A stretch of 64,000 nt of DNA from Candidatus Bruticola sp. (lineage in GTDB: Bacteria > Vulcanimicrobiota > Xenobia > Xenobiales > Xenobiaceae). The stretch lies in contig JBJEGC010000007.1 in NCBI GenBank assembly GCA_051874695.1, forward strand, positions 231,465 through 295,464, given 5' to 3'. The position numbers and the translations under genes are program-made. Positions within the stretch are counted from its first letter, which is position 1. Each line of letters begins with the position of its first letter. This document shows positions 84-10,660 of this stretch, piece by piece. The notes below the pieces were generated by a model. The model was not told the origin of the DNA, did not search any database, and saw only the letters and a program-made list of their open reading frames with translations.

Positions 84-1022
84 ATGAAGCCAATTAAAGT
101 TGGCGTGGTCGGCATTGGCAGTATGGGAAAAAACCATGCTCGAGTGTGCGCCGAACTACCCCAGATTGAACTTACAGGCATGGTGGATCTCGATGAAGCC
201 AGAGTTGCCCCTTTAGCTCAGCAGTACGGCACACAGTATTATAAAGATTATCATAGTCTCTATGGCAAAATTGACGCTGTGGTTATCGTTGCGCCTACTA
301 ATCTTCACTATCAAATCGCTCAAGACTTTTTAGAGCAGGGCGTTCATGTTTTAGTAGAAAAGCCCATTACTGTCGAGGTTGGTGAGGCCAAACGTTTAGT
401 AACCTCTGCTAAAGAAAAGAATCTTATTTTGCAAGTAGGTCATTTGGAACGCTTTAATCCTGCCGTAATAAAGTTAAAACAAATGGTGGGCAGGCCGGTA
501 CTCATAGAGTGCCATCGTCTTTCCGGTCCTACTACTCGCAGCCTCGATGTCGGTATTATTTGGGATCTGATGATTCACGATTTCGATATACTTTTGAGTC
601 TGTATAAGTCTCCGGTGGCGGAAATTCATGCTATGGGAACTTCTATATACTCTAAATTCGAAGATGTCGCGCATGTACAAATGCGGTTTGAGTGCGGGGC
701 CGTAGCTAGTCTGGTTGCCAGCCGCAATTCCGGAGAACGGAAGCGCAGTCTCAAGATTACTGAAGATACTGGCAGAGTTCTTTCCCTCGATTTTATTAAT
801 CAGACTTTAGTTATTTCTCGCCCCGGCCCCGATGGTCGTCCCCTGGATTTAGAACCTGTTCATATTGACAAAGAGGAACCTCTTCGTTTGGAACTTAGCA
901 ATTTTGCAGATTGTGTAATTAATCACAAAGAGCCTGTTGTCTCTGGCGAAGATGGCAAGCGTGCTCTGGAACTGGCTGTTCATGTTCTGGAGAATATGCA
1001 GAAAATTACGCTTTCTAAATAG
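84..1022 (+). CDS. Gfo/Idh/MocA-family NAD(P)-dependent oxidoreductase (possible GnnA-like UDP-GlcNAc 3-dehydrogenase)
   Basis: 312-aa ORF with a GGAGGA RBS at 71-76. Has the N-terminal Rossmann motif KVGVVGIGSMGKNH and the VLVEKPIT (EKP) motif typical of the family. Lies directly upstream of lpxA. Confidence 0.8.
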   Translation: MKPIKVGVVGIGSMGKNHARVCAELPQIELTGMVDLDEARVAPLAQQYGTQYYKDYHSLYGKIDAVVIVAPTNLHYQIAQDFLEQGVHVLVEKPITVEVGEAKRLVTSAKEKNLILQVGHLERFNPAVIKLKQMVGRPVLIECHRLSGPTTRSLDVGIIWDLMIHDFDILLSLYKSPVAEIHAMGTSIYSKFEDVAHVQMRFECGAVASLVASRNSGERKRSLKITEDTGRVLSLDFINQTLVISRPGPDGRPLDLEPVHIDKEEPLRLELSNFADCVINHKEPVVSGEDGKRALELAVHVLENMQKITLSK

Positions 1023-1073
1023 AGCGGCGGTAAAGAAAAAATTTCGCTTGAAGTACAGAGAGGAGACAAAGAG

Positions 1074-1883
1074 GTGATTCATCCTAGCGCTATAGTTCAT
1101 CCCGGAGCACGTATCGGCGAGGGAGTAGAGATCGGACCTTTCTCTATTATCGGAGAAAATGTCGAGATAGGAGACGGTACTAAAATTATGTCTTCCGTTG
1201 TGATAGACGGATGGACAACTATAGGTAAAAATAACCGCATTTATCCGGGTGCATCCATAGGCTTAGCTCCTCAGGACTTCAGTTATAAAGGACAGCGTTC
1301 ATTTGTTGTTATTGGCGACAATAATGAACTTCGTGAATACGTAACTATTCATCGAGCTGCTGATGAAGATGGAATTACCTCCATAGGCAGCGGCAACCTG
1401 CTCATGGCCAATGTTCACATTGCTCATAATTGCTGTATAGGTAGCCAAATTACTATGGCCAACTATGCCGGCTTGGCCGGGCACACTGTTGTAGAAGATC
1501 AGGCAGTTTTAGGAGGTTTAGTTGGTATCCATCAGCACACCCGCATTGGTCGTTTATGCATGGTGGGCGGATGTTCCAAAATAAACAAAGATCTGCCTCC
1601 TTTCAGCATTGTTGATGGTAACCCTTGCCGCCTCTTCGGCATGAACTTCCGGGGTATGCGCCGCCGCGATATTTCCAAAGAGAGCCGTCTGGCCGTTCAT
1701 AAAGCTATCAATATTTTAGGCAGCTGCGGTCTAACCCTTGATGCTGCCATAGAGCGTATAGACAATGAGTTAGAGCATACTCCTGAAATTGAGCATTTTC
1801 TGACTTTCTTGCGCGGTGCTTCCCATATGGGAGTTCTTAACAAGGCCAGCAACGTGGGAGCGAGAGCTCACAGCAACGCTTAG
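1074..1883 (+). CDS. lpxA: Acyl-ACP--UDP-N-acetylglucosamine O-acyltransferase LpxA
   Basis: 269-aa ORF with a GTG start after AGAGGAG. The N-terminus IHPSAIVHPGARIGEGVEIGPFSIIGENVEIGDGT is a hexapeptide left-handed beta-helix. The C-terminal helical domain and the length fit LpxA, and lpxB follows. Confidence 0.9.
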   Translation: MIHPSAIVHPGARIGEGVEIGPFSIIGENVEIGDGTKIMSSVVIDGWTTIGKNNRIYPGASIGLAPQDFSYKGQRSFVVIGDNNELREYVTIHRAADEDGITSIGSGNLLMANVHIAHNCCIGSQITMANYAGLAGHTVVEDQAVLGGLVGIHQHTRIGRLCMVGGCSKINKDLPPFSIVDGNPCRLFGMNFRGMRRRDISKESRLAVHKAINILGSCGLTLDAAIERIDNELEHTPEIEHFLTFLRGASHMGVLNKASNVGARAHSNA

Positions 1884-1894
1884 TTGGTGCAGTT

Positions 1895-4342
1895 TTGACA
1901 GAGAGTAACCGGCAACAATCATCTGCTTATCCCCAGCTGACAGTTGCGATAATTGCCATAGAGCCTTCTGCCGATCTTCATGGAAGTAATTTGGCCAAGG
2001 CTCTTTTGGCGATTAATCCTAATTTAAAACTTGTTGGTGTAGGCGGTTCACACATGGCCGCGTCGGGAGTCAATCTTTGGTTAAAAACCACAGATATGGC
2101 GGTTATAGGTCCCGGCGGGGCTATTTCTCGTTTGCATAAGTATATATACCACTACCTATATGTACGTTCGCATCTGCTGAAGGAGCATCCTCATCTTAGT
2201 ATTTTAATAGACTGCCCTGCCGTTAATATGCGCTATGCCGGTCTTTTAACCCGTTATGGATATCATTCGGTATATTATTTCCCTCCTTCTGCCTGGACGA
2301 CAAGTGAAGCGCGTTTGCGGCAAATTTTTAGTCGTACTGACAAGGTAATTTGTACTTTTTTAAGCAATGCCGAAAATTATCGACGCTTCGGTATGGACGT
2401 CGATTTTTTCGGTCATCCTCTTATTGATATACCTGAGTTGGCGATATCTGCGGAAGAGGCTAAAAGTAAACTCGGTTTGGTCGGAGACAATATTCTAGCT
2501 GTATTGCCAGGCAGTCGTGCGCCGGAAATAAAGTACTTGTTACCGGTCTTTTTGCAAATTGCTGCCGAGCTCCGTAAGGAAATTGAAGACTTGCAGGTTC
2601 TGATACCATGTGCCACCCAAGCTCTTCGCAGGCAAATTGTTGCTTTTATGGGGGATCGCTTTCCCTATGTACGTGTTCTAGATGGAGAGTCCCGTTTGGC
2701 TCTCTTATCTTGCCGGGCGGCTTTAATGAGCTCCGGTACTGCCAGTTTGGAGGCTGCCATTTTAGGTACTCCGATGGTCTTGTCTTACAAACTTTGCCCC
2801 TTCGATGCCGTTATAGGTCGTTTTTTGCTTTGGAGCGGTCTGCTTAAAATTGAACATATCGGACTGCCCAGTTTAGTTGTTGGCCGCCGTATAGTTCCCG
2901 AATTTCTTCAGGATGAAGTCTCTCCCGAAAATATTCTCCCTCATCTGCGCAATTTTATGCGCGATACTCCTGAACGGCGCCAAGTTAAACAAGAACTTTT
3001 AGATATGAGAAATTCTATGGGAGCTCCGGGAGTTGTTGCTAAAATAGCCTCTTCTTTATACAGACGTATTGAGAGTAATGCGGCTGAGCGTCAGGCTGAA
3101 CCTTTTGATATTGTAATTACTTCTAATTCGCCGGGAGAGGTAGCTGCTTGGGTGCGGCGCACTACCACTCAACTTGAGGCCAGAAATAACGGACAGTTTC
3201 GGGTTATTGTAGCTTTAGTTCCCTGCCCCTATGCTTCGGGAGCGGAAGCGGAGGTGGCTGCTGCTCTTCCTGGTGTTTCCGTTGTGTTGACTCCCAGCCA
3301 AACTTTGCGGTTAATGGGGGGCTTTTTTAAAGATTTTCAGTTTCGCCGTCGGGGCGTAGTAGTATTTTTAGGCGGTGATTTGATTCATGCCAAAATTTTA
3401 TCTTGGCGTCTAAAGTATCGATCTATAGCCTACGCGGCTAGGTACAATCAACTTATTTCATATTTTGATAAAGTGGCCGCTTCGGATGTTTCATTGGCCG
3501 AAGAATTGTCTGAGGCTGGAGTTCGTGAAGTTGTTACCATAGGCAATTTAAGCGTTGACGGAGTTCTTTCCGAGGTAGATCGGGAAGCCGCCGGTAGCCT
3601 TCAAAAGCGAAAGGGAGTAAAAATTGGCATTTTCCCCGGGTCGCGCTTTTTGCACACAAAAATAGCTTTGGGAGTCTTTTTGCGCGTGGCGGCTTTAATT
3701 AAAACGTGCCATCCTGAAGTCGAATTCGTTCTTTCAGTGTCGCCTTTTGTTTCTAAAGCCAGACTGGAGTCGGCGCTGTACAGTCCCTTCAGCTTAGGAT
3801 TGCCAGTGGCTAAGGGGAAATTTGTGAGCTCTGATCGCATTGAAGTTGAGTGTTTGCATGAAGCTGAAAACGCAGCCGGGCGTAACTTTGAGGTGGAAGT
3901 GCTGTGGGGTCATCCTTACCAAGCTATTGCAGAAATAGATATGGCCCTGACTATTCCCGGTACCAATACGGGAGAATTGGGCTGCTGTGGTAAACCCATG
4001 GTAATTGGCCTTTCGGCTGATGCTTCTTTACCTAGAGGAGGGCTTGGCGGTCTATTGGAGCAGATTCCTATATTATCGAAGCTAAAGCGCCGTCTGCGTC
4101 TGCGCTCTTACGAACGTCACGGTTTTGCTGCTATTCCCAATCGTATTGCCTCTAGAGTTGTAGTCCCCGAAATTTTAGTTAAAAAAGATACTTCTGTGCT
4201 GGCGCAGCCTATTTTAGATTGGATTGAAAATCCGGAGAAGTGTGCCCGTGTTTCCCAAGATTTAAAAGACACCATGAAAACAACGGAAGGAGCTGGTGAG
4301 CGCATGGCTGATTTGATTTTGAGTTTGGTCGATTCTAAATGA
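1895..4342 (+). CDS. lpxB: Lipid-A-disaccharide synthase LpxB fused to a second LpxB-like (GT19-like) module
   Basis: 815-aa ORF with a TTG start. Residues ~14-395 carry LpxB hallmarks (EPSADLHGSNL, VLPGSRAPEI, SSGTASLEAAILGTPMV). Residues ~405-815 repeat the same architecture with diverged motifs (ITSNSPGEVAAW, IFPGSRFLHTKI, IPGTNTGELGCCGKPMV). Confidence 0.85.
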   Translation: MTESNRQQSSAYPQLTVAIIAIEPSADLHGSNLAKALLAINPNLKLVGVGGSHMAASGVNLWLKTTDMAVIGPGGAISRLHKYIYHYLYVRSHLLKEHPHLSILIDCPAVNMRYAGLLTRYGYHSVYYFPPSAWTTSEARLRQIFSRTDKVICTFLSNAENYRRFGMDVDFFGHPLIDIPELAISAEEAKSKLGLVGDNILAVLPGSRAPEIKYLLPVFLQIAAELRKEIEDLQVLIPCATQALRRQIVAFMGDRFPYVRVLDGESRLALLSCRAALMSSGTASLEAAILGTPMVLSYKLCPFDAVIGRFLLWSGLLKIEHIGLPSLVVGRRIVPEFLQDEVSPENILPHLRNFMRDTPERRQVKQELLDMRNSMGAPGVVAKIASSLYRRIESNAAERQAEPFDIVITSNSPGEVAAWVRRTTTQLEARNNGQFRVIVALVPCPYASGAEAEVAAALPGVSVVLTPSQTLRLMGGFFKDFQFRRRGVVVFLGGDLIHAKILSWRLKYRSIAYAARYNQLISYFDKVAASDVSLAEELSEAGVREVVTIGNLSVDGVLSEVDREAAGSLQKRKGVKIGIFPGSRFLHTKIALGVFLRVAALIKTCHPEVEFVLSVSPFVSKARLESALYSPFSLGLPVAKGKFVSSDRIEVECLHEAENAAGRNFEVEVLWGHPYQAIAEIDMALTIPGTNTGELGCCGKPMVIGLSADASLPRGGLGGLLEQIPILSKLKRRLRLRSYERHGFAAIPNRIASRVVVPEILVKKDTSVLAQPILDWIENPEKCARVSQDLKDTMKTTEGAGERMADLILSLVDSK

Positions 4343-4343
4343 T

Positions 4344-4997
4344 ATGAAAATTCCGAATGAAAATTGCCCCAAAATTGCTCCTCCTTTTATTTTCAAGTGG
4401 CGCGGCCTGATCATGGCGGCGGTGACTGCCGTTATATTGGTCGCTGCTAAACCTACTTTAGTCGCTTGCTGTTGGGGAGCATGCCTAGCAACTTTAGGAG
4501 AGCTGCTGCGCTCATGGGCTCTAGGTTGGACTGGAGAACATACGCGCAGCCAAGAACTTAAGGCTTCCTTTTTGGTTACCGGCGGGCCTTATAAATATGT
4601 GCGCAATCCGCTGTATCTGGGAAATATTTTGAACGGATTGGGGGTTTTAGTGGCTGCTGTCGGAGATATGCCTTGTGTAGGGGCAGTAGCCCTCTGGATT
4701 TTTGGTATTTTATCCCTTTACATAGTTTATGCTTCGTGCATAATTTCTGAAGAAGCCTTCTTGGCTATGCGTTTTGGAGATATATTTTTTCGCTATAGAG
4801 CTGTTACGCCAACAATTTTACCTCGTTGGGGACAGTATTTAAATTTTATAAGCAGCTTTTTTAACTCTTCTTCTCATACCGATGTTAAGGCAGATGGAGA
4901 AGGATTCTTTTCTTGGCAGTCTTTAAAGTTTGAGTACAGTACCTGGGGATGGCTTATCGCTGTTTGGTCCCTTTTGTTGGCAAAGATATATATGTAA
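4344..4997 (+). CDS. ICMT/PEMT-family membrane methyltransferase (possible LmtA-like lipid A phosphate methyltransferase)
   Basis: 217-aa ORF starting 1 nt after the lpxB stop. Has several hydrophobic helices and the YKYVRNPLYLGNIL motif characteristic of isoprenylcysteine carboxyl methyltransferase-like enzymes. Confidence 0.75.
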   Translation: MKIPNENCPKIAPPFIFKWRGLIMAAVTAVILVAAKPTLVACCWGACLATLGELLRSWALGWTGEHTRSQELKASFLVTGGPYKYVRNPLYLGNILNGLGVLVAAVGDMPCVGAVALWIFGILSLYIVYASCIISEEAFLAMRFGDIFFRYRAVTPTILPRWGQYLNFISSFFNSSSHTDVKADGEGFFSWQSLKFEYSTWGWLIAVWSLLLAKIYM

Positions 4998-5070: not shown

Positions 5071-6249
5071 TTAAGGATGTTTGGCGGATATTTCGGTAAG
5101 AATTTGAGCCATGCGTGCCGCTCCTCCGGGAGGGCCCAGCCGCTCTCTACCGATAGCCCCGCGCCGCTCTCGGTCGGCTTTATTTTGGATAAGCTGACAG
5201 AGAGTTTCTATGATCTCTGGATCGTAATCTTCACAAACGATAAGAGCTTCACCCAGCAGTCCTTTCTGTCTGGCTCTGTACCATTTTAAACGAGTTTCTC
5301 CGCCTGGTTCATAGGCCACAATGGGAATACCATGACCGGCAGCCTGTTCATGGGCTGTGCCGGCTAAACCTAAAGCAACTTGACTGTATTTGAGTACATC
5401 GGCTAGATGACCCTTTACTAGGAAAAAGCGGGTTAGCGGGGTTGCACCGCTACTGACAGAGGTAAGCTTGCTCCAACCGGGATAAGGTGTTTCTTCTGTG
5501 ATAAATCCGGGACATGACTTGGCTAGTTTTTCAGTGTCGATAGAGGGAGCTACTGCAATAAAGGCGCATATCTTTTTGCCTAAGCGTTGAGACAGCATTT
5601 GGCTTATGTTCAACAGGCGGGGAAGTACTCGGTAAGTTGCCTGTCTGCTGCCGGGAAATAGAGCTAAGCCCACTTCTTGACTATCATCTAGGCTAAAGTT
5701 TAGCTCTTGAGGGACTAAGCCGTCCATCATGGCATTGCCTACCCAGATAGCTTTGACTCCTTTTTTACGTAGGCTTTCAGCTGTAGGTTCATCCCGTACA
5801 ATAGAACGAACCTTAAAAGTTCTCAGAACCCAAGCTTCTAAGGCAGAGTAGGGATGGTGGTAATCTGATTTAGCCGTGCCGATAAACGTGATGGGACGTA
5901 TGCCGGAAAGCGCAGCTAAAATAACCGGCCATAGATCGCCTACTGCCACAATCTGGTTAAAATAGCTGCGGTTAGAACGCAGCCAAAATAATTGTTTTAA
6001 AGTTAAACAGGCTAAACCGTTGCCAAGATCTTTCCAAAAATTGCGCCAATCTTCTTGAATAAGGCCGCCGCTGGGCATGTTGCGTATAGGGCCGCTTATG
6101 GGAGCTATTCCTTTGTAAGCAGATCCCTCTCCGACTAAAGGTAAAGCTTCTATGGGGAGCGATTTAGGCAGTTCTGTAATAATCTGAGCCGCTATAGAAT
6201 CTTCACCGGCTCCGTTGGATACAAATAAAAGGCGTCGAGGGACAGACAC
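5071..6249 (-). CDS. Lipid-A-disaccharide synthase-related glycosyltransferase (stand-alone LpxB-like)
   Basis: 392-aa ORF. The N-terminus LLFVSNGAGEDSIAAQI, LFPGSRQATY and LAGTAHEQAAGHGIPIV parallel the LpxB motifs. Resembles the LpxB-related family I recall from cyanobacteria (TIGR03492). Last gene of the lpxD operon. Confidence 0.65.
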   Translation of the reverse strand: MSVPRRLLFVSNGAGEDSIAAQIITELPKSLPIEALPLVGEGSAYKGIAPISGPIRNMPSGGLIQEDWRNFWKDLGNGLACLTLKQLFWLRSNRSYFNQIVAVGDLWPVILAALSGIRPITFIGTAKSDYHHPYSALEAWVLRTFKVRSIVRDEPTAESLRKKGVKAIWVGNAMMDGLVPQELNFSLDDSQEVGLALFPGSRQATYRVLPRLLNISQMLSQRLGKKICAFIAVAPSIDTEKLAKSCPGFITEETPYPGWSKLTSVSSGATPLTRFFLVKGHLADVLKYSQVALGLAGTAHEQAAGHGIPIVAYEPGGETRLKWYRARQKGLLGEALIVCEDYDPEIIETLCQLIQNKADRERRGAIGRERLGPPGGAARMAQILTEISAKHP

Positions 6250-6279: not shown

Positions 6280-7125
6280 TTAAGCCAAACTGAGTAATTC
6301 GCAGGTACTTAGCTGTGGATTCTCTATATTGTAATCAATTTTGTTTATATTTTGGGCAAAAGCTCCAGTTTGCACAATAAAAGAACCGTTTATTTCACAG
6401 GGCGCATCCAGCCTGGTGTGAGTATGGCCTCCTAAAATCCAGGTGCCGGGTGGCAAATTCTCGGCTAATTTTTGATCTCGGTCGAAGCCAATGTGGCTAA
6501 GAATTATTAAGTTAGTTTTTAATCCTATATTTTTTGAATAGCGGCGGGCCACCTGAGGAAGAGTGGTCTCCGCTTCAAAAAAACGGAAGCCAAATAGCTT
6601 TTCCCATACCGCATTGTGGGGGTACTGTACGGGAACGGCAGACAAAATCAGGAGAGCATAATTGGAGCTCCAAGATCGATTGAAGAGTGCTAAGGCTGGG
6701 ATCCAGCGCTTTGAAGACAGCTCCTGCCAAATCTGTGACTGTCTCCAATTAACGGAACTACAGTCTATGAGCGGTATGTTTTGAATATTTTCGACAAATT
6801 CATGCTGATCGAGAGGGCCACTTAGGCGCATATCTGACAAGTTGGTACATATAAGAGGAAAAGAACGCTGTTTGGCTCTTTTATCTAAAATGCGCCTTTG
6901 ATAGTTGAATTCACGATTGCCCATGGCCATGGCTGCGCAGCCGATAGCACTCATTTTCTCTAAGTTAGGTTCAAAATTTTTCCATACTGTGTTGGAGCCG
7001 ATTAGGGCGTCGCCGCTGTCAAAATAGAGAGCCTTGTCAGCTGCTACAGCGGCGGATGCTCTGCTGCTTAACCAGGCTAAAGCTTCGCCGTGGCCGTGCA
7101 TGTCGTTGGTATGATAAATAAGCAT
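6280..7125 (-). CDS. Calcineurin-like metallophosphoesterase with a GNR motif (candidate UDP-2,3-diacylglucosamine hydrolase)
   Basis: 281-aa ORF with metallophosphoesterase motifs in order: NDMHGH, DSGDA, GNREF (Arg in place of the usual His, codon at 6913-6915), SHIGF, GGHTHT. Embedded in the lpxD operon. Confidence 0.75.
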   Translation of the reverse strand: MLIYHTNDMHGHGEALAWLSSRASAAVAADKALYFDSGDALIGSNTVWKNFEPNLEKMSAIGCAAMAMGNREFNYQRRILDKRAKQRSFPLICTNLSDMRLSGPLDQHEFVENIQNIPLIDCSSVNWRQSQIWQELSSKRWIPALALFNRSWSSNYALLILSAVPVQYPHNAVWEKLFGFRFFEAETTLPQVARRYSKNIGLKTNLIILSHIGFDRDQKLAENLPPGTWILGGHTHTRLDAPCEINGSFIVQTGAFAQNINKIDYNIENPQLSTCELLSLA

Positions 7126-7148: not shown

Positions 7149-7724
7149 CTAACTTTTGCTTTTCTTAGAGGACTTGGAATCTCTTTCTTGAGCCACTTCG
7201 GCATAGACTTGACGGTAGCGGTCCAATCCTATCGCTTTGCCAATTACAATTCCGTACCCTAATATCCATCCTACTCCGGCTAAAGAGGCGCCGCCGATAT
7301 ATACGCCAATCAATAGACCGATACATCCGAAGATTAAGCTGTTCAGCATGGGTTTGGAATCTAGAGATATGGAGTAACCCAAAGAAAGGCCGATAATTGC
7401 TCCCACAAGTCCGTAGTAGCTGCCTTTGCCTATGTCAGCAGCTGTAGTTGCAATTGCTAAACTGGCTTTGGCTGCCTGCACAAGTGGGGAAGCCGATTGA
7501 CCGGCATCTATAATGGAGTTGGCTCCCCACAAAAAGCCCATCATCAATCCCATACCGGCAAAACAAAGGCAGTATAGGGCCCTTTGCTGTTTTGTAAGAA
7601 AAGTCGTCTGCTGCTTATCCGAATTGCCGTTCTGGGCGGCAGCAGAAGCAGTAGCTTTCTTGTCTTGTTTTGTGTTTTTCTTTTCTTTCTTCTTGTTGTC
7701 TTTCGGAGAAGATGAATCACTCAT
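7149..7724 (-). CDS. Small Gly-rich integral membrane protein, function unknown
   Basis: 191-aa ORF with Lys/Ser-rich termini and central Gly-zipper-like hydrophobic segments (GLLIGVYIGGASLAGVGWILGYGIVIG). Its start overlaps the lpxD stop by 8 nt. Confidence 0.6.
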   Translation of the reverse strand: MSDSSSPKDNKKKEKKNTKQDKKATASAAAQNGNSDKQQTTFLTKQQRALYCLCFAGMGLMMGFLWGANSIIDAGQSASPLVQAAKASLAIATTAADIGKGSYYGLVGAIIGLSLGYSISLDSKPMLNSLIFGCIGLLIGVYIGGASLAGVGWILGYGIVIGKAIGLDRYRQVYAEVAQERDSKSSKKSKS

Positions 7725-8700
7725 GGTTTGTTTCTCTGTCCTTTGGGGATAATTTTGCCAATTTCTTTATTTGCTCCCAGTTTTTCACAGGAAGCTGATG
7801 CATAGCGATACGGCGCATTGACATTTTGTGAGCTTCGGCTGGATCGCCAGACCATACTGATTGACCGGCCGGGATGTCTTTATCTACTCCCGATCTGGCT
7901 GCTACCGTAGCACAATTACCGACACGGCATCCTTCTTTTATTAGGCATTGTCCGGCAGCTATGGATAATTTTCCAATATGGACCCTCTCCTGCAGGCAGT
8001 TTTGAGAAATAATTATAGCCAGAGGTTCTACAACTACTTCTCTGTTTATGCAGGCTAAATTGTCTATACGCACTCCTTGGCCAATATTTGTTTTTGAGCC
8101 AATAAAACAGCGGGCGCCAATTTCAATGTCGCTTGCTAAGGAGGCTTCGTCATCGATAACAGTAAGCGGTCCCACTAGACTTGAGCCGCTTAATTTTACG
8201 TTCTTGCCTAAAGAAACTCCGGGCATCAGACGGGTATCCGCCCCAATAAAACTTCCGCTGCCTATACTTACGTGAGCTTGAATTTGGCAGCGATCGCCAA
8301 CGGTTACTCCGTCTTCGATAACAGCAAAGGGACCGATGTAAGCTGTTGGAGCTATATTGGCTGAACTGCTCACATAGGAAGTTTTATGTATGCCTGGCTG
8401 GAAGTGAACGGGAGGGTAATATAAATCGAGAAGCTGGGCATAGGCTACTCGCGCATTTTTTACCAATATCGCCGGCGTGTCAGTTTGTATTTTTTCTGGT
8501 ATGATTACCGCAGCAAAACCGAGGCGCACCGCTTCCTGCAATACATTCTCATTTTCAGCGAAAGTAATTGCTGAATCCAAATTGTGACAGGAAGCCGCAT
8601 CTAGACCGGTCACTTCTTTTATAGTCAGAGAAGCACTTTCCGGTATGTTTAGGCGTCCTCCGAGAAAATCGGCCAATTCTTCTAAGTTCTTTACCACCAT
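7717..8700 (-). CDS. lpxD: UDP-3-O-acylglucosamine N-acyltransferase LpxD
   Basis: 327-aa ORF. The N-terminal LpxD-type domain (LEELADFLGGRL..ITFAENENVLQEA) is followed by hexapeptide-repeat beta-helix (IGDRCQIQAHVSIGSGSFIGADTRL). Confidence 0.9.
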   Translation of the reverse strand: MVVKNLEELADFLGGRLNIPESASLTIKEVTGLDAASCHNLDSAITFAENENVLQEAVRLGFAAVIIPEKIQTDTPAILVKNARVAYAQLLDLYYPPVHFQPGIHKTSYVSSSANIAPTAYIGPFAVIEDGVTVGDRCQIQAHVSIGSGSFIGADTRLMPGVSLGKNVKLSGSSLVGPLTVIDDEASLASDIEIGARCFIGSKTNIGQGVRIDNLACINREVVVEPLAIIISQNCLQERVHIGKLSIAAGQCLIKEGCRVGNCATVAARSGVDKDIPAGQSVWSGDPAEAHKMSMRRIAMHQLPVKNWEQIKKLAKLSPKDRETNHE

Positions 8701-10010
8701 AATTCAGGATAATCACTCCAAGTTTCTGCCGGATCTATGTCCGCTTCTTCTAATGTAAGGCTACGTACAGCCATAGGAACGCACATGGTGCGTCCGTTTA
8801 AAACGGATTCGTAGCCCAATCCTATTAAATCAGATCCGAAAAGATCTGCGTAATTTGCTCTTACAATAAACTGGGGAACTCGGCAAATGGGACGACCGTG
8901 ATGCAGTAAAAAAGCGGTCTCGCATCGCCTGGCAAACTGCCCTTCTTTTTTCATATGTTCAGGTAGAGGAGTCAGTCTGTCCAGTAAAATGCCGAAGTCT
9001 GTTTTGGCACAAAGTTCTCCCAAAGAACAGTCGCCGCCTTGGAGAAGTAAGTTCGAATGGCCAGGCTTGGGAGGCTGCCCCCAGGGACGAACCGCTGAAC
9101 CGTTGGGAACTACACCGTAAGATCTGGCTGTACTTAAATCGTAAATACCGCCTACAAGTTCGCCCTGGCGCACTAGAGGCAGAGGAGTCTTGGTAATTCC
9201 TTCTCCGTCAAAGGGCACGCTGCCAAAGCCTCCATGCAGGGAAGCATTGTCGGTTATATTGACACAGGGAGCCAGCCATGGAGAATTTTTAGGCAGAGAC
9301 TTAAAGAGCGGCGCATCAGCATAGAGCATCTCCTTAGCAAAATCTTCGAGCAGCTTGCCGCAAGCACTGGCTGTAAATACGCCCGGAAGGGTATTGCTGT
9401 CAGGCCAAGCCATTTCTGCAGAATGTACGGAGCGCCAGGCCAATCGGCATAGCATCTCCGCGGGAGAATGCTGGGCAGAAGTACTGTAGATGGCATCTCC
9501 GATGGGGATGCCGTCGTTGGAATTTAGAGTAAGTAGATGCAGAATACGGCCGGCACAGCGCTCTCCGCTTCTGGTTGTGATTTTTAAAGTATGCTGCAGT
9601 AGCCTGGCACTGAGGGAAAAATGCCTATCCGGCAACAGGGAAGGAAGCATAAAGTCAAGTCCTTGAATAAGGGCTTTAAACTTCATAATTGAGTCTTCAA
9701 GCTGCTGTGAGGTCTCAGCTGTGCTGGGAGCCGGAGTCGGAGAAATCAGTCCTTTTTGTGAGAAGGAGCCGCGCTTGCCGCCGACAGCATTTTGGGCTGC
9801 TTTTTGCAGCAAATCACTAATCGAAAATTCTCCTTCGGACCAAACATAGCCTAGCCGCCCGTCTACATTGATTCTAAGTCCGAGCCCGGGTTTAAATATG
9901 CGCTGCTCAGGCTGAGCTAAATTCACTTCCGTATAAACTTCTTCAGAAACTTCGGCGTCTCTGGCCATACCGAGTGCTTTGACCAGCAACTGATTTGCAT
10001 AACTGGCCAT
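8691..10010 (-). CDS. TldD/PmbA-family metallopeptidase-like protein
   Basis: 439-aa ORF. The C-terminal half has the PmbA_TldD pattern (PFDGEGITKTPLPLVRQGELVGGIYDLSTA, SNLLLQGGDCSLGEL, GILLDRL). Its stop overlaps the lpxD start by 10 nt. Confidence 0.75.
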   Translation of the reverse strand: MASYANQLLVKALGMARDAEVSEEVYTEVNLAQPEQRIFKPGLGLRINVDGRLGYVWSEGEFSISDLLQKAAQNAVGGKRGSFSQKGLISPTPAPSTAETSQQLEDSIMKFKALIQGLDFMLPSLLPDRHFSLSARLLQHTLKITTRSGERCAGRILHLLTLNSNDGIPIGDAIYSTSAQHSPAEMLCRLAWRSVHSAEMAWPDSNTLPGVFTASACGKLLEDFAKEMLYADAPLFKSLPKNSPWLAPCVNITDNASLHGGFGSVPFDGEGITKTPLPLVRQGELVGGIYDLSTARSYGVVPNGSAVRPWGQPPKPGHSNLLLQGGDCSLGELCAKTDFGILLDRLTPLPEHMKKEGQFARRCETAFLLHHGRPICRVPQFIVRANYADLFGSDLIGLGYESVLNGRTMCVPMAVRSLTLEEADIDPAETWSDYPELWW

Positions 10011-10012
10011 AA

Positions 10013-10660
10013 TTATTCGGCACTCCTTAGAAGAAGTATATTGTAGGGGAGCACTTCCATATTAGAGAGCAGTTCTGACAGTTTATATTCATCATTCGCT
10101 GCTCCATTTTCGGTTGGCAGAATAAGTTGCCAAAGCTGTTCGGTTGATGACGTTTGCTTGAGCTTGGCACCGTTAATGGCTGCCCATTGTTTGGCAACTC
10201 GCCGACTGTGCTTGTCGTCTAAATACAGGAAGCAACAGGTTAAGTTTTGTCGCTCAACTATTCTGATGAAGTTTTCCAGGCCTGAGGCTGCGTCTCGAGC
10301 AGAAGCTCCTCGTAAGTCAAGGCAGGGAGTTCCTTTAAATACAGAAGCTTCGGAGTGGGACGAGGCTTTAAAAAGGTCCGATTTCAGCAGTTCGGAGCTT
10401 TGAGACTGATTTTGAGCCGTTTCGGAGAGAACACGATAACTGCTTAGGACAACTTCTGCTTGAGGATTGAGATAGCGCCTCAAAGTGCCCTGCAGTCCTT
10501 TTACTAGAAAAGCTGTAGGCAGTCCGGGGGCAAAGCGCTCTAAACTAACATTTAGCCTGTTTAATTCTTTGTCGAAATTGAAATCTGTGAAACGTACCCC
10601 CTCATTATTAAAAGTTTTAGTCAGTTTGTTTAAAATTTCCTCAGGGGTGTACTTCTCCAT
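10013..10660 (-). CDS. Hypothetical protein (operon partner of the TldD/PmbA-like gene)
   Basis: 215-aa ORF with a 2-nt gap to the downstream gene. I recognise no confident family. I have only a weak impression of an Nfu/NifU-like N-half and a TusA-like C-half lacking the Cys-Pro active site. Confidence 0.55.
   Translation of the reverse strand: MEKYTPEEILNKLTKTFNNEGVRFTDFNFDKELNRLNVSLERFAPGLPTAFLVKGLQGTLRRYLNPQAEVVLSSYRVLSETAQNQSQSSELLKSDLFKASSHSEASVFKGTPCLDLRGASARDAASGLENFIRIVERQNLTCCFLYLDDKHSRRVAKQWAAINGAKLKQTSSTEQLWQLILPTENGAANDEYKLSELLSNMEVLPYNILLLRSAE

Follow-up and report, generated by a model that had tools for sequence, protein, structure and literature searches.

The window analyzed here is a stretch of 64,000 nucleotides (G000:C7:231465-295464) from the source genome G000, whose assembly comprises 2.49 Mb and is 96.6% complete. 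Its minus strand codes, at 6280-7125, for a stand-alone metallophosphoesterase of 281 residues, P0001, which lies in the midst of genes for lipid A synthesis and which we call, after its most characteristic motif, a short GNRE protein. On balance we favor, with some reserve, the reading that P0001 is a fourth, convergently evolved pyrophosphatase of uridine diphosphate (UDP)-2,3-diacylglucosamine, the enzyme that forms lipid X. The reaction is a known one and so is the superfamily, but the enzyme family, with its convergent active site, would rather probably be new. We infer the substrate, the products and the convergent role of the arginine at position 71 from the gene, its motifs, fold, phyletic pattern, synteny and fusions, all of which were observed directly. 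A first-pass annotation of this DNA had already suggested that the protein may be the pyrophosphatase of the pathway, and our analysis supports this suggestion as a function predicted from sequence. The gene and the codons of its metal center are the following:

6280-7125, minus strand: short GNRE metallophosphoesterase P0001, stand-alone, 281 residues (open frame and translation)
7096-7104, minus strand: codons of Asp8 and His10, the metal ligands of the DxH motif (alignment)
7009-7011, minus strand: codon of the metal ligand Asp39 (alignment)
6916-6918, minus strand: codon of the metal ligand Asn70 (alignment)
6915-6913, minus strand: CGT codon of Arg71, in place of the histidine of GNH(D/E) (sequence read)
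6493-6495, minus strand: codon of the metal ligand His211 (alignment)
6418-6426, minus strand: codons of His234 and His236, the metal ligands of the GHxH motif (alignment)

The calcineurin-like phosphoesterase frame of the first-pass annotation was confirmed at its full 281 residues together with the four motifs read in it, NDMHGH (residues 7-12), DSGD (36-39), GNREF (69-73) and GGHTHT (232-237), and the arginine codon CGT that had been located at 6913-6915 of the minus strand is indeed that of residue 71. The protein opens at once with its first beta-strand and metal motif (MLIYHTNDMHGH), the strand and the DxH motif beginning at residue 2. All seven metal ligands (D8, H10, D39, N70, H211, H234 and H236) are retained in 93-100% of 123 short members of the family: Asp8 and His10 are kept in 93-97% of them and in 100% of the long 5'-nucleotidases, while His234, His236 and the other ligands (Asp39, Asn70 and His211) are invariant or 99% conserved. 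Neither a signal peptide nor a transmembrane segment was found in P0001 (the maximum 19-residue Kyte-Doolittle mean is 0.85), and all four long 5'-nucleotidase paralogues of G000 carry hydrophobic N-terminal leaders. The early reactions in lipid A synthesis take place at the cytoplasmic face of the membrane, and the cytoplasmic location of P0001 that follows from the lack of a signal peptide and of a transmembrane segment fits such a step. Its closest named homologue, 79% identical, comes from 'Candidatus Bruticola sp.' (phylum Vulcanimicrobiota, also called Eremiobacterota, class Xenobia); the bacterium that carries the window is a gut member of Eremiobacterota.

The arginine at position 71 is a character of the whole family. 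Residues G69-N70-R71-E72 are invariant in an alignment of 38 sequences that reaches down to 29% identity, and 1.84 billion representative proteins, searched with a profile, yielded 911 matches at E <= 1e-30. GNRE is found in 128 of 129 short proteins (up to 330 residues) with a GN-x-E/D motif and GNH(E/D) in every long multi-domain 5'-nucleotidase among the collected homologues. When 123 short and 12 long sequences were aligned jointly, position 71 was Arg in 100% of the short ones and His in 100% of the long ones. With GNRE invariant in the 38 homologues and in 100% of the 123 short members, Arg71 is not a chance substitution. The first-pass annotation had noted that this very exchange distinguishes LpxH, and the literature bears this out: LpxH alone among metallophosphoesterases was reported to swap that histidine for an arginine, and its Arg80 forms a bidentate salt bridge to the phosphate of lipid X, which is the beta-phosphate of the substrate (PMC5016852).

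The likeness of P0001 to LpxH extends beyond this residue to the calcineurin-like superfamily, to a peripheral or cytoplasmic location without export signal, to the binuclear metal ligands (DxH, GD, GN, H and GHxH) and to a gene position in the lipid A cluster of organisms with no other recognized enzyme for the step. The two proteins nevertheless differ in the motif itself (GNRE in P0001, GNRD in LpxH) and in their fold neighbors, which for P0001 are 5'-nucleotidases and not LpxH; moreover, neither a sequence match to LpxH nor a lid of the LpxH type was detected in P0001. This separate descent, with no LpxH match in sequence or fold, would make the arginine of P0001 convergent with that of LpxH.

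Profile comparisons and the predicted structure identify P0001 as a stand-alone homologue of the N-terminal catalytic domain of UshA and other 5'-nucleotidases, in agreement with the framework anticipated by the first-pass annotation, and neither as an orthologue of LpxH, LpxG or LpxI nor as a full-length 5'-nucleotidase. The Pfam model PF00149 (Metallophos) scored 21.1 bits, just under its gathering score of 21.5; most homologues carry a precomputed PF00149 match, and the calcineurin-like fold is unambiguous by structure comparison. Among NCBIfam models, those of SoxB, UshA and other 5'-nucleotidases were the only ones matched, in their N-terminal parts and far under the cut-offs, and the models of LpxH (TIGR01854/NF003743) and LpxG (NF033458) gave no match even at E <= 10. 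A profile built from 38 homologues and compared with the chains of the PDB found CD73 (E of about 1e-27) and UshA (about 1e-25) and matched no LpxH chain at E <= 0.01. The AlphaFold (AF2) model, predicted with a mean local confidence (pLDDT) of 95.7 and a template modeling score (pTM) of 0.94, was paired by Foldseek with N-domains of 5'-nucleotidases at a probability of 1.00, and VIA-align superposed it on them end to end over about 233 residues with Z scores of 24-25.5 and root mean square deviations of 2.6-3.0 Å.

P0001 thus shares with UshA, CD73 and SoxB homology over its full length and the identical seven metal ligands, but it differs from them in lacking three features. The domain 5_nucleotid_C (PF02872) was not matched in P0001, which stops at residue 281, and this C-terminal domain, which binds the nucleoside in UshA and CD73, is missing from all short relatives and present in the long matches. 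The export signal is gone, and so is the catalytic His-Asp dyad, the sequence GNHEFD having become GNREF(N/H)Y in the family and GNREFNY in P0001. The lineage of P0001 has therefore lost the C-terminal nucleotide-binding domain, the export signal and the dyad of UshA-type enzymes. With UshA the likeness would extend to the type of bond cleaved, since UshA (model NF007109) is a UDP-sugar hydrolase which converts UDP-sugars into uridine monophosphate (UMP) and sugar-1-phosphate. As the first-pass annotation had stated, LpxG belongs with LpxH to the calcineurin-like enzymes (PMC4807358). Like P0001 in our proposal, LpxG fills the same gap in a lineage without LpxH and LpxI; however, its motif is still GNHD and a transmembrane helix stands at its N-terminus (PMC4807358), whereas P0001 has GNRE and no such helix, and G000 holds a separate YaeI/LpxG-like gene besides that of P0001. 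LpxI acts at the same pathway step with an unrelated fold and mechanism (PMC4807358), and of its models (PF06230 and PF17930; DUF1009 fold) PF06230 was not found anywhere in the genome of G000, P0001 being a metallophosphoesterase instead. The only large insertion in P0001, at about residues 100-145, is specific to its own lineage and missing from most members of the family.

LpxH is the enzyme of beta- and gammaproteobacteria, LpxI that of alphaproteobacteria, diderm Firmicutes and others, and LpxG that of Chlamydia. A 2025 review names exactly three enzymes for the formation of lipid X, LpxH, LpxI and LpxG (PMC12444477), the same three that the first-pass annotation had listed. The lipid A genes present in G000 are lpxC, lpxA, an LpxD-like gene and lpxB, and neither the window nor the whole genome contains a recognizable copy of LpxH or LpxI. 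Of the lpxA, lpxD and lpxB that had been read in the window, lpxA and lpxB score above their cut-offs and the LpxD-like gene below (170 against 207 bits); a search elsewhere in the genome for a canonical lpxH or lpxI, suggested at the same time, found none and leaves the proposal standing. LpxK and WaaA were likewise not found in a search of the whole genome, which also gave no KdsA above the cut-off. A 'four-enzyme' lipid A pathway has long been noted for Cyanobacteria and Dictyoglomi (PMC3087551), and by its gene content G000 presents the same pattern, with the lipid X-forming step lacking an assigned gene there.

Some candidates for lpxH in G000 were rejected. Two fragments matching the LpxH model (on C15 and at C7:192 kb) are interrupted, sub-threshold frames. 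The gene G000:C32:6866-8116 (minus strand; L007:1048-2295) has a signal-like leader, a GNND motif and a score of 28 bits to PRK05340; its product is a phosphoesterase of 416 residues, LpxH-like only weakly and at the N-terminus, and probably exported.

To follow the family through the phylum we used 151 genomes of Eremiobacterota from 71 genera, including the unpublished G127. LpxH (TIGR01854) and LpxI (PF06230) were found in 0/151, LpxB in 150/151 and the GNRE family (best E <= 1e-60) in 149/151. One of the two exceptions is a co-absence, G026 being the sole genome without an LpxB match and having only long 5'-nucleotidases of the GNH type. The other, G130, gave no family match and only a truncated LpxB match in an assembly of 220 contigs; as its relatives carry lpxB next to the GNRE gene, this is likely an assembly gap. 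Coordinates compared in about 80 genomes of the families f15, f20 and f21 place the GNRE gene 15-220 bp behind lpxB and on the same strand (for instance 15 bp in G129, 45 bp in G144 and 60 bp in G103). Most other families of the phylum have the pair on one contig at a distance of 0.4-5 kb, and eight genomes have it split between contigs.

Across 14 regions of 14-18 kb taken from the whole phylum, the common order is lpxD, lpxC, a stretch of about 0.5 kb (fabZ-sized), an optional gfo, lpxA, lpxB, then optionally a second GT19 module, an ICMT gene and a small membrane protein, followed by the phosphoesterase and TIGR03492. The TIGR03492 gene is directly downstream of the GNRE gene in 13 of these 14 loci, and the 14th reaches the contig end. 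A metagenome contig of 7.6 Mb (that of P0315) has the same order and continues with lptF/G, lptB and lptC. The association goes as far as natural fusion of the GNRE domain to TIGR03492, in P0092 (650 residues) and P0250 (640 residues), which are about 40% identical to each other.

The tree of the short GNRE proteins consists of two clades, one of which holds all the Eremiobacterota loci. In a scan of species-representative genomes the other proved to be mostly from Armatimonadota (Chthonomonadales, Fimbriimonadales, Capsulimonadales, Armatimonas and Abditibacteriota), and a few of its records bear other or no taxon names. Among 101 genomes of Armatimonadota, LpxH was above the cut-off in 0/101 (with 6 weak matches) and LpxI was found in 0/101, while LpxB was present in 97/101 and the GNRE family in 86/101 at E <= 1e-30, some of the weakest family matches being long, 5'-nucleotidase-sized frames. 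The gene neighbors are different ones here: the GNRE gene lies directly downstream of kdsC in 24/80 loci and of kdsD in 19/80, on the same strand, and the two neighbors were confirmed by TIGR01670 (143 bits, cut-off 107) and TIGR00393 (308 bits, cut-off 204), respectively. The family is thus tied to genes for lipopolysaccharide (LPS) twice, in two phyla and via different neighbors, and the linkage of orthologues to such genes, a lack of which the first-pass annotation had named as a refutation, leaves its proposal standing. Divergent members, P0169 and P0172, occur on short metagenome contigs, one of which has a neighbor of the SIS+CBS (KdsD) type. Atlas searches, whether based on features or on structure, led to no named groups but Vulcanimicrobiota, Armatimonadota and clusters of ordinary 5'-nucleotidases, and the best 120 homologues of TIGR03492 were all of the Eremiobacterota type or unnamed.

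The scenario that we propose is that P0001 would act as a cytoplasmic pyrophosphatase with a binuclear metal center, carrying out the fourth step of lipid A synthesis, from UDP-2,3-diacylglucosamine to UMP and lipid X; the analogue of this substrate with 2,3-diamino-2,3-dideoxyglucose (GlcN3N) may be an alternative, given the GnnA-like oxidoreductase gene beside lpxA. The seven ligands would hold two metal ions, and a water molecule activated there would attack the alpha-phosphate. Arg71 would, much as Arg80 does in LpxH, bind the beta-phosphate, neutralizing and positioning it; this phosphate would leave as the 1-phosphate of lipid X, and UMP would be released. As the phosphate is a good leaving group, a general acid would be dispensable and the His-Asp dyad could be lost, which speaks in favor of a pyrophosphatase and against a monoesterase. 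Lipid X would then be the acceptor for LpxB, and the fusion to TIGR03492 suggests a hand-over to, or a cooperation with, a second GT19-like enzyme. For the short GNRE proteins as a whole, the chances look evenly balanced that they form a fourth independent class of lipid X pyrophosphatases, derived from a UshA-type hydrolase, which would have acquired the arginine of LpxH by convergence, would be standard in Eremiobacterota and most Armatimonadota and may extend to other 'four-enzyme' lineages of the Terrabacteria such as Cyanobacteria.

Among the early steps that lead to lipid A, the formation of lipid X alone is already known to be performed by several distinct enzymes, and there are phyla with LPS genes that have none of LpxH, LpxI and LpxG. 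A fourth class, if real, would close this gap for Eremiobacterota and for much of Armatimonadota, would offer a clean case of a convergent active site, one superfamily having made the His-to-Arg switch in two of its branches, and would improve both pathway annotation and the inference of diderm envelopes and LPS for genomes from metagenomes. Full-text searches of the literature gave nothing on a fourth class, on lipid A of Eremiobacterota or on LpxH in Armatimonadota. LpxG itself was identified by complementation of an E. coli lpxH mutant together with a thin-layer assay (PMC4807358).

Several observations weigh against this proposal. At the level of the protein, an acyl-chain-binding lid like that of LpxH was not recognized in P0001, either in the sequence alignment or in the superposition of the model. 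At the level of the neighborhood, the constant partner in Eremiobacterota is TIGR03492 and not LpxB itself, and the TIGR03492 model also matches the control genome of Deinococcus radiodurans, so that it is not a strict marker of lipid A. Deinococcus is not known to have lipid A. The controls Synechococcus elongatus, Deinococcus radiodurans and Bacteroides thetaiotaomicron all had TIGR03492 matches, over the cut-off in two of them, and members of the family may also serve outside lipid A synthesis. A prediction of the complex between the phosphoesterase and its TIGR03492 neighbor scored 0.00, which is uninformative either way. In Armatimonadota, lpx genes were found within 8 kb of the GNRE gene in 0/80 loci, and 15 of the 101 genomes (about 15%) have an LpxB match and no family match at E <= 1e-30. 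Five of the latter were checked (G158, G163, G174, G226 and G250; L163-L167) and gave no family match even at E <= 1e-5. All five carry lpxC and an LpxB match, and LpxH and LpxI were not found in them; in G163 and G250, the two whose lpxB region was examined, fabZ-lpxA adjoins lpxB, followed in G163 by msbA and waaA. A different hydrolase was looked for and not found in the lpx clusters examined among these family-less genomes, which showed only lpxC-fabZ-lpxA-lpxB-msbA-waaA and unrelated genes. Another enzyme for lipid X must therefore exist there, and the GNRE family is not the only solution.

The sole candidates remaining in those five genomes are YaeI/LpxG-like genes, and in G000, too, such a gene is the chief competitor of P0001 for the LpxH step and constitutes a live alternative. 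G000 encodes at G000:C10:24821-26164 (minus strand; L010:1282-2622) a membrane-anchored protein of 447 residues, in which a YaeI-type metallophosphoesterase domain comes after several hydrophobic segments at the N-terminus and which scores 94 bits to YaeI (below the cut-off) and 93 bits to LpxG (cut-off 350). Were this enzyme to make lipid X, the GNRE enzyme would be another LPS-linked pyrophosphatase or phosphatase working alongside TIGR03492; it could, for example, remove the UDP released by GT19-type transferases and so relieve product inhibition, or trim a phosphate of the lipid A precursor toward a phosphate-poor lipid A of the cyanobacterial type. We regard this account as unlikely, yet serious: YaeI/LpxG-like proteins occur in 101/101 Armatimonadota genomes as well as in G000, the GNRE gene has TIGR03492 as its constant partner, with two cases of fusion, and the absence of LpxK, WaaA and KdsA from G000 points to a non-canonical lipid A. 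For G000 and all Armatimonadota the argument by elimination is accordingly unclean, and it works only for most Eremiobacterota. There, YaeI/LpxG-like matches occur in 61/151 genomes, but in only 3/71 of the largest family and in 0/14 of three others, all of which have LpxB and the GNRE gene. The matches never attain the LpxG cut-off, and the controls Bacillus and Lactococcus, classically regarded as devoid of LPS, match as well. A partnership with glycosyltransferases is further weakened in Armatimonadota, where the GNRE gene adjoins no GT19 gene, and the phosphatase variant fares no better, since the absence of the His-Asp dyad would ill suit a monoesterase and P0001 has no export signal, whereas the 1- and 4'-phosphatases known for lipid A work at the outer face of the inner membrane.

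P0001 might also be a housekeeping hydrolase of nucleotides or UDP-sugars in the cytoplasm, a trimmed UshA whose location in an LPS cluster has no meaning for the pathway. That its nearest relatives in sequence and fold are 5'-nucleotidases and UshA, and that the gene of Armatimonadota is not beside lpx genes, would be well explained in this way, but we consider it improbable: the LPS linkage takes two forms in two phyla (lpxB/TIGR03492 and kdsD-kdsC), the enzyme is naturally fused to a GT19-like one, its co-occurrence with LpxB in Eremiobacterota is near-perfect and includes one co-absence, and the domain that binds the nucleoside in UshA and CD73 has been lost. A role of P0001 without catalysis, as scaffold or regulatory subunit of TIGR03492 or LpxB, is very improbable. 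The loss of the canonical dyad and the fusion to TIGR03492 in two lineages would agree with it, but the seven metal ligands persist in 93-100% of the 123 short sequences, and LpxH demonstrates that an enzyme with arginine in this place can be fully active (PMC5016852). Hardly credible, lastly, is a role in replacing or assisting KdsC, the phosphatase of 3-deoxy-D-manno-octulosonate (Kdo) 8-phosphate, which is suggested by the position of the gene right after kdsD or kdsC in many Armatimonadota loci and after the SIS+CBS gene on one metagenome contig; a bona fide kdsC is immediately upstream in the 24 loci mentioned above, and G000 has the GNRE gene with neither WaaA nor a KdsA above the cut-off.

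The genes surrounding that of P0001 belong to two convergent operons, a lipid A operon on the plus strand (84-4997) and a tightly packed operon of six genes on the minus strand, in which the phosphoesterase gene is fifth in order, before TIGR03492, and the spacings are, from 5' to 3', 2, -10, -8, 23 and 30 nucleotides:

84-1022, plus strand: Gfo/Idh/MocA oxidoreductase (273 bits to the archaeal UDP-N-acetylglucosamine 3-dehydrogenase model, cut-off 450)
1074-1883, plus strand: lpxA (NF003657, 338 bits, cut-off 226)
1895-4342, plus strand: lpxB of double length, 815 residues (TIGR00215, 255 bits, cut-off 190)
4344-4997, plus strand: membrane methyltransferase of the ICMT/PEMT type, beginning 1 nucleotide past lpxB
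5071-6249, minus strand: TIGR03492 'lipid-A-disaccharide synthase-related' glycosyltransferase of the GT-B type (269 bits, cut-off 219)
7149-7724, minus strand: predicted membrane protein P0078, 191 residues (no family match)
7717-8700, minus strand: LpxD-like hexapeptide acyltransferase (PRK00892, 170 bits, cut-off 207; TIGR01853, 141 bits, below the cut-off)
8691-10010, minus strand: PmbA/TldD-like protein, C-terminal domain only (PF19289, 98 bits)
10013-10660, minus strand: protein of 215 residues without family, first gene of the operon
G000:C7:230191-230988: lpxC, just upstream of the window

The first-pass annotation had described the phosphoesterase gene as wedged between lpxD and an LpxB-related gene. 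This holds on the downstream side, where the TIGR03492 gene follows directly after 30 nucleotides, but on the other side the gene of P0078 separates it from the LpxD-like gene, which P0078 overlaps by 8 nucleotides. L058 and L065 have weak counterparts of P0078 in the corresponding place. The genes of the PmbA/TldD-like protein and of the 215-residue protein are translationally coupled to the LpxD-like gene.

In the lpxB of the window, a canonical LpxB (residues 15-385, the part that scores 255 bits) is fused to a diverged GT19-like module at about residues 400-815, with scores of 30 bits against lpxB and 22 bits against TIGR03492; in other Eremiobacterota (L058, L062-L065 and L157) this second module has a gene of its own, which directly follows lpxB. 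The methyltransferase that follows gives a weak match (42 bits, cut-off 325) to LmtA, the lipid A 1-phosphate methyltransferase of Leptospira, and many Eremiobacterota loci have a counterpart of it between the lpxB and phosphoesterase genes. If this enzyme methylates the 1-phosphate, that phosphate would be retained, which argues against a role of P0001 as 1-phosphatase.

As for the taxonomic names attached to the family, P0049 (L062, G005:C59) carries the NCBI label 'Chloroflexi bacterium' and is identical to a copy in a sampled Eremiobacterota genome, and odd record names among the loci of the Armatimonadota clade include Methyloversatilis, Gemmatimonas and metagenome-assembled genomes of Chloroflexota. 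Such labels look like errors of labeling or binning and not like a wider range of the family. Finally, the Gfo/Idh/MocA gene is kept upstream of lpxA in roughly every second Eremiobacterota locus examined, and its GnnA-like product, encoded beside lpxA, hints at a lipid A backbone of the GlcN3N type, while a second LpxA/LpxD-like hexapeptide gene lies outside the window at G000:C7:227235-227861, upstream of lpxC.

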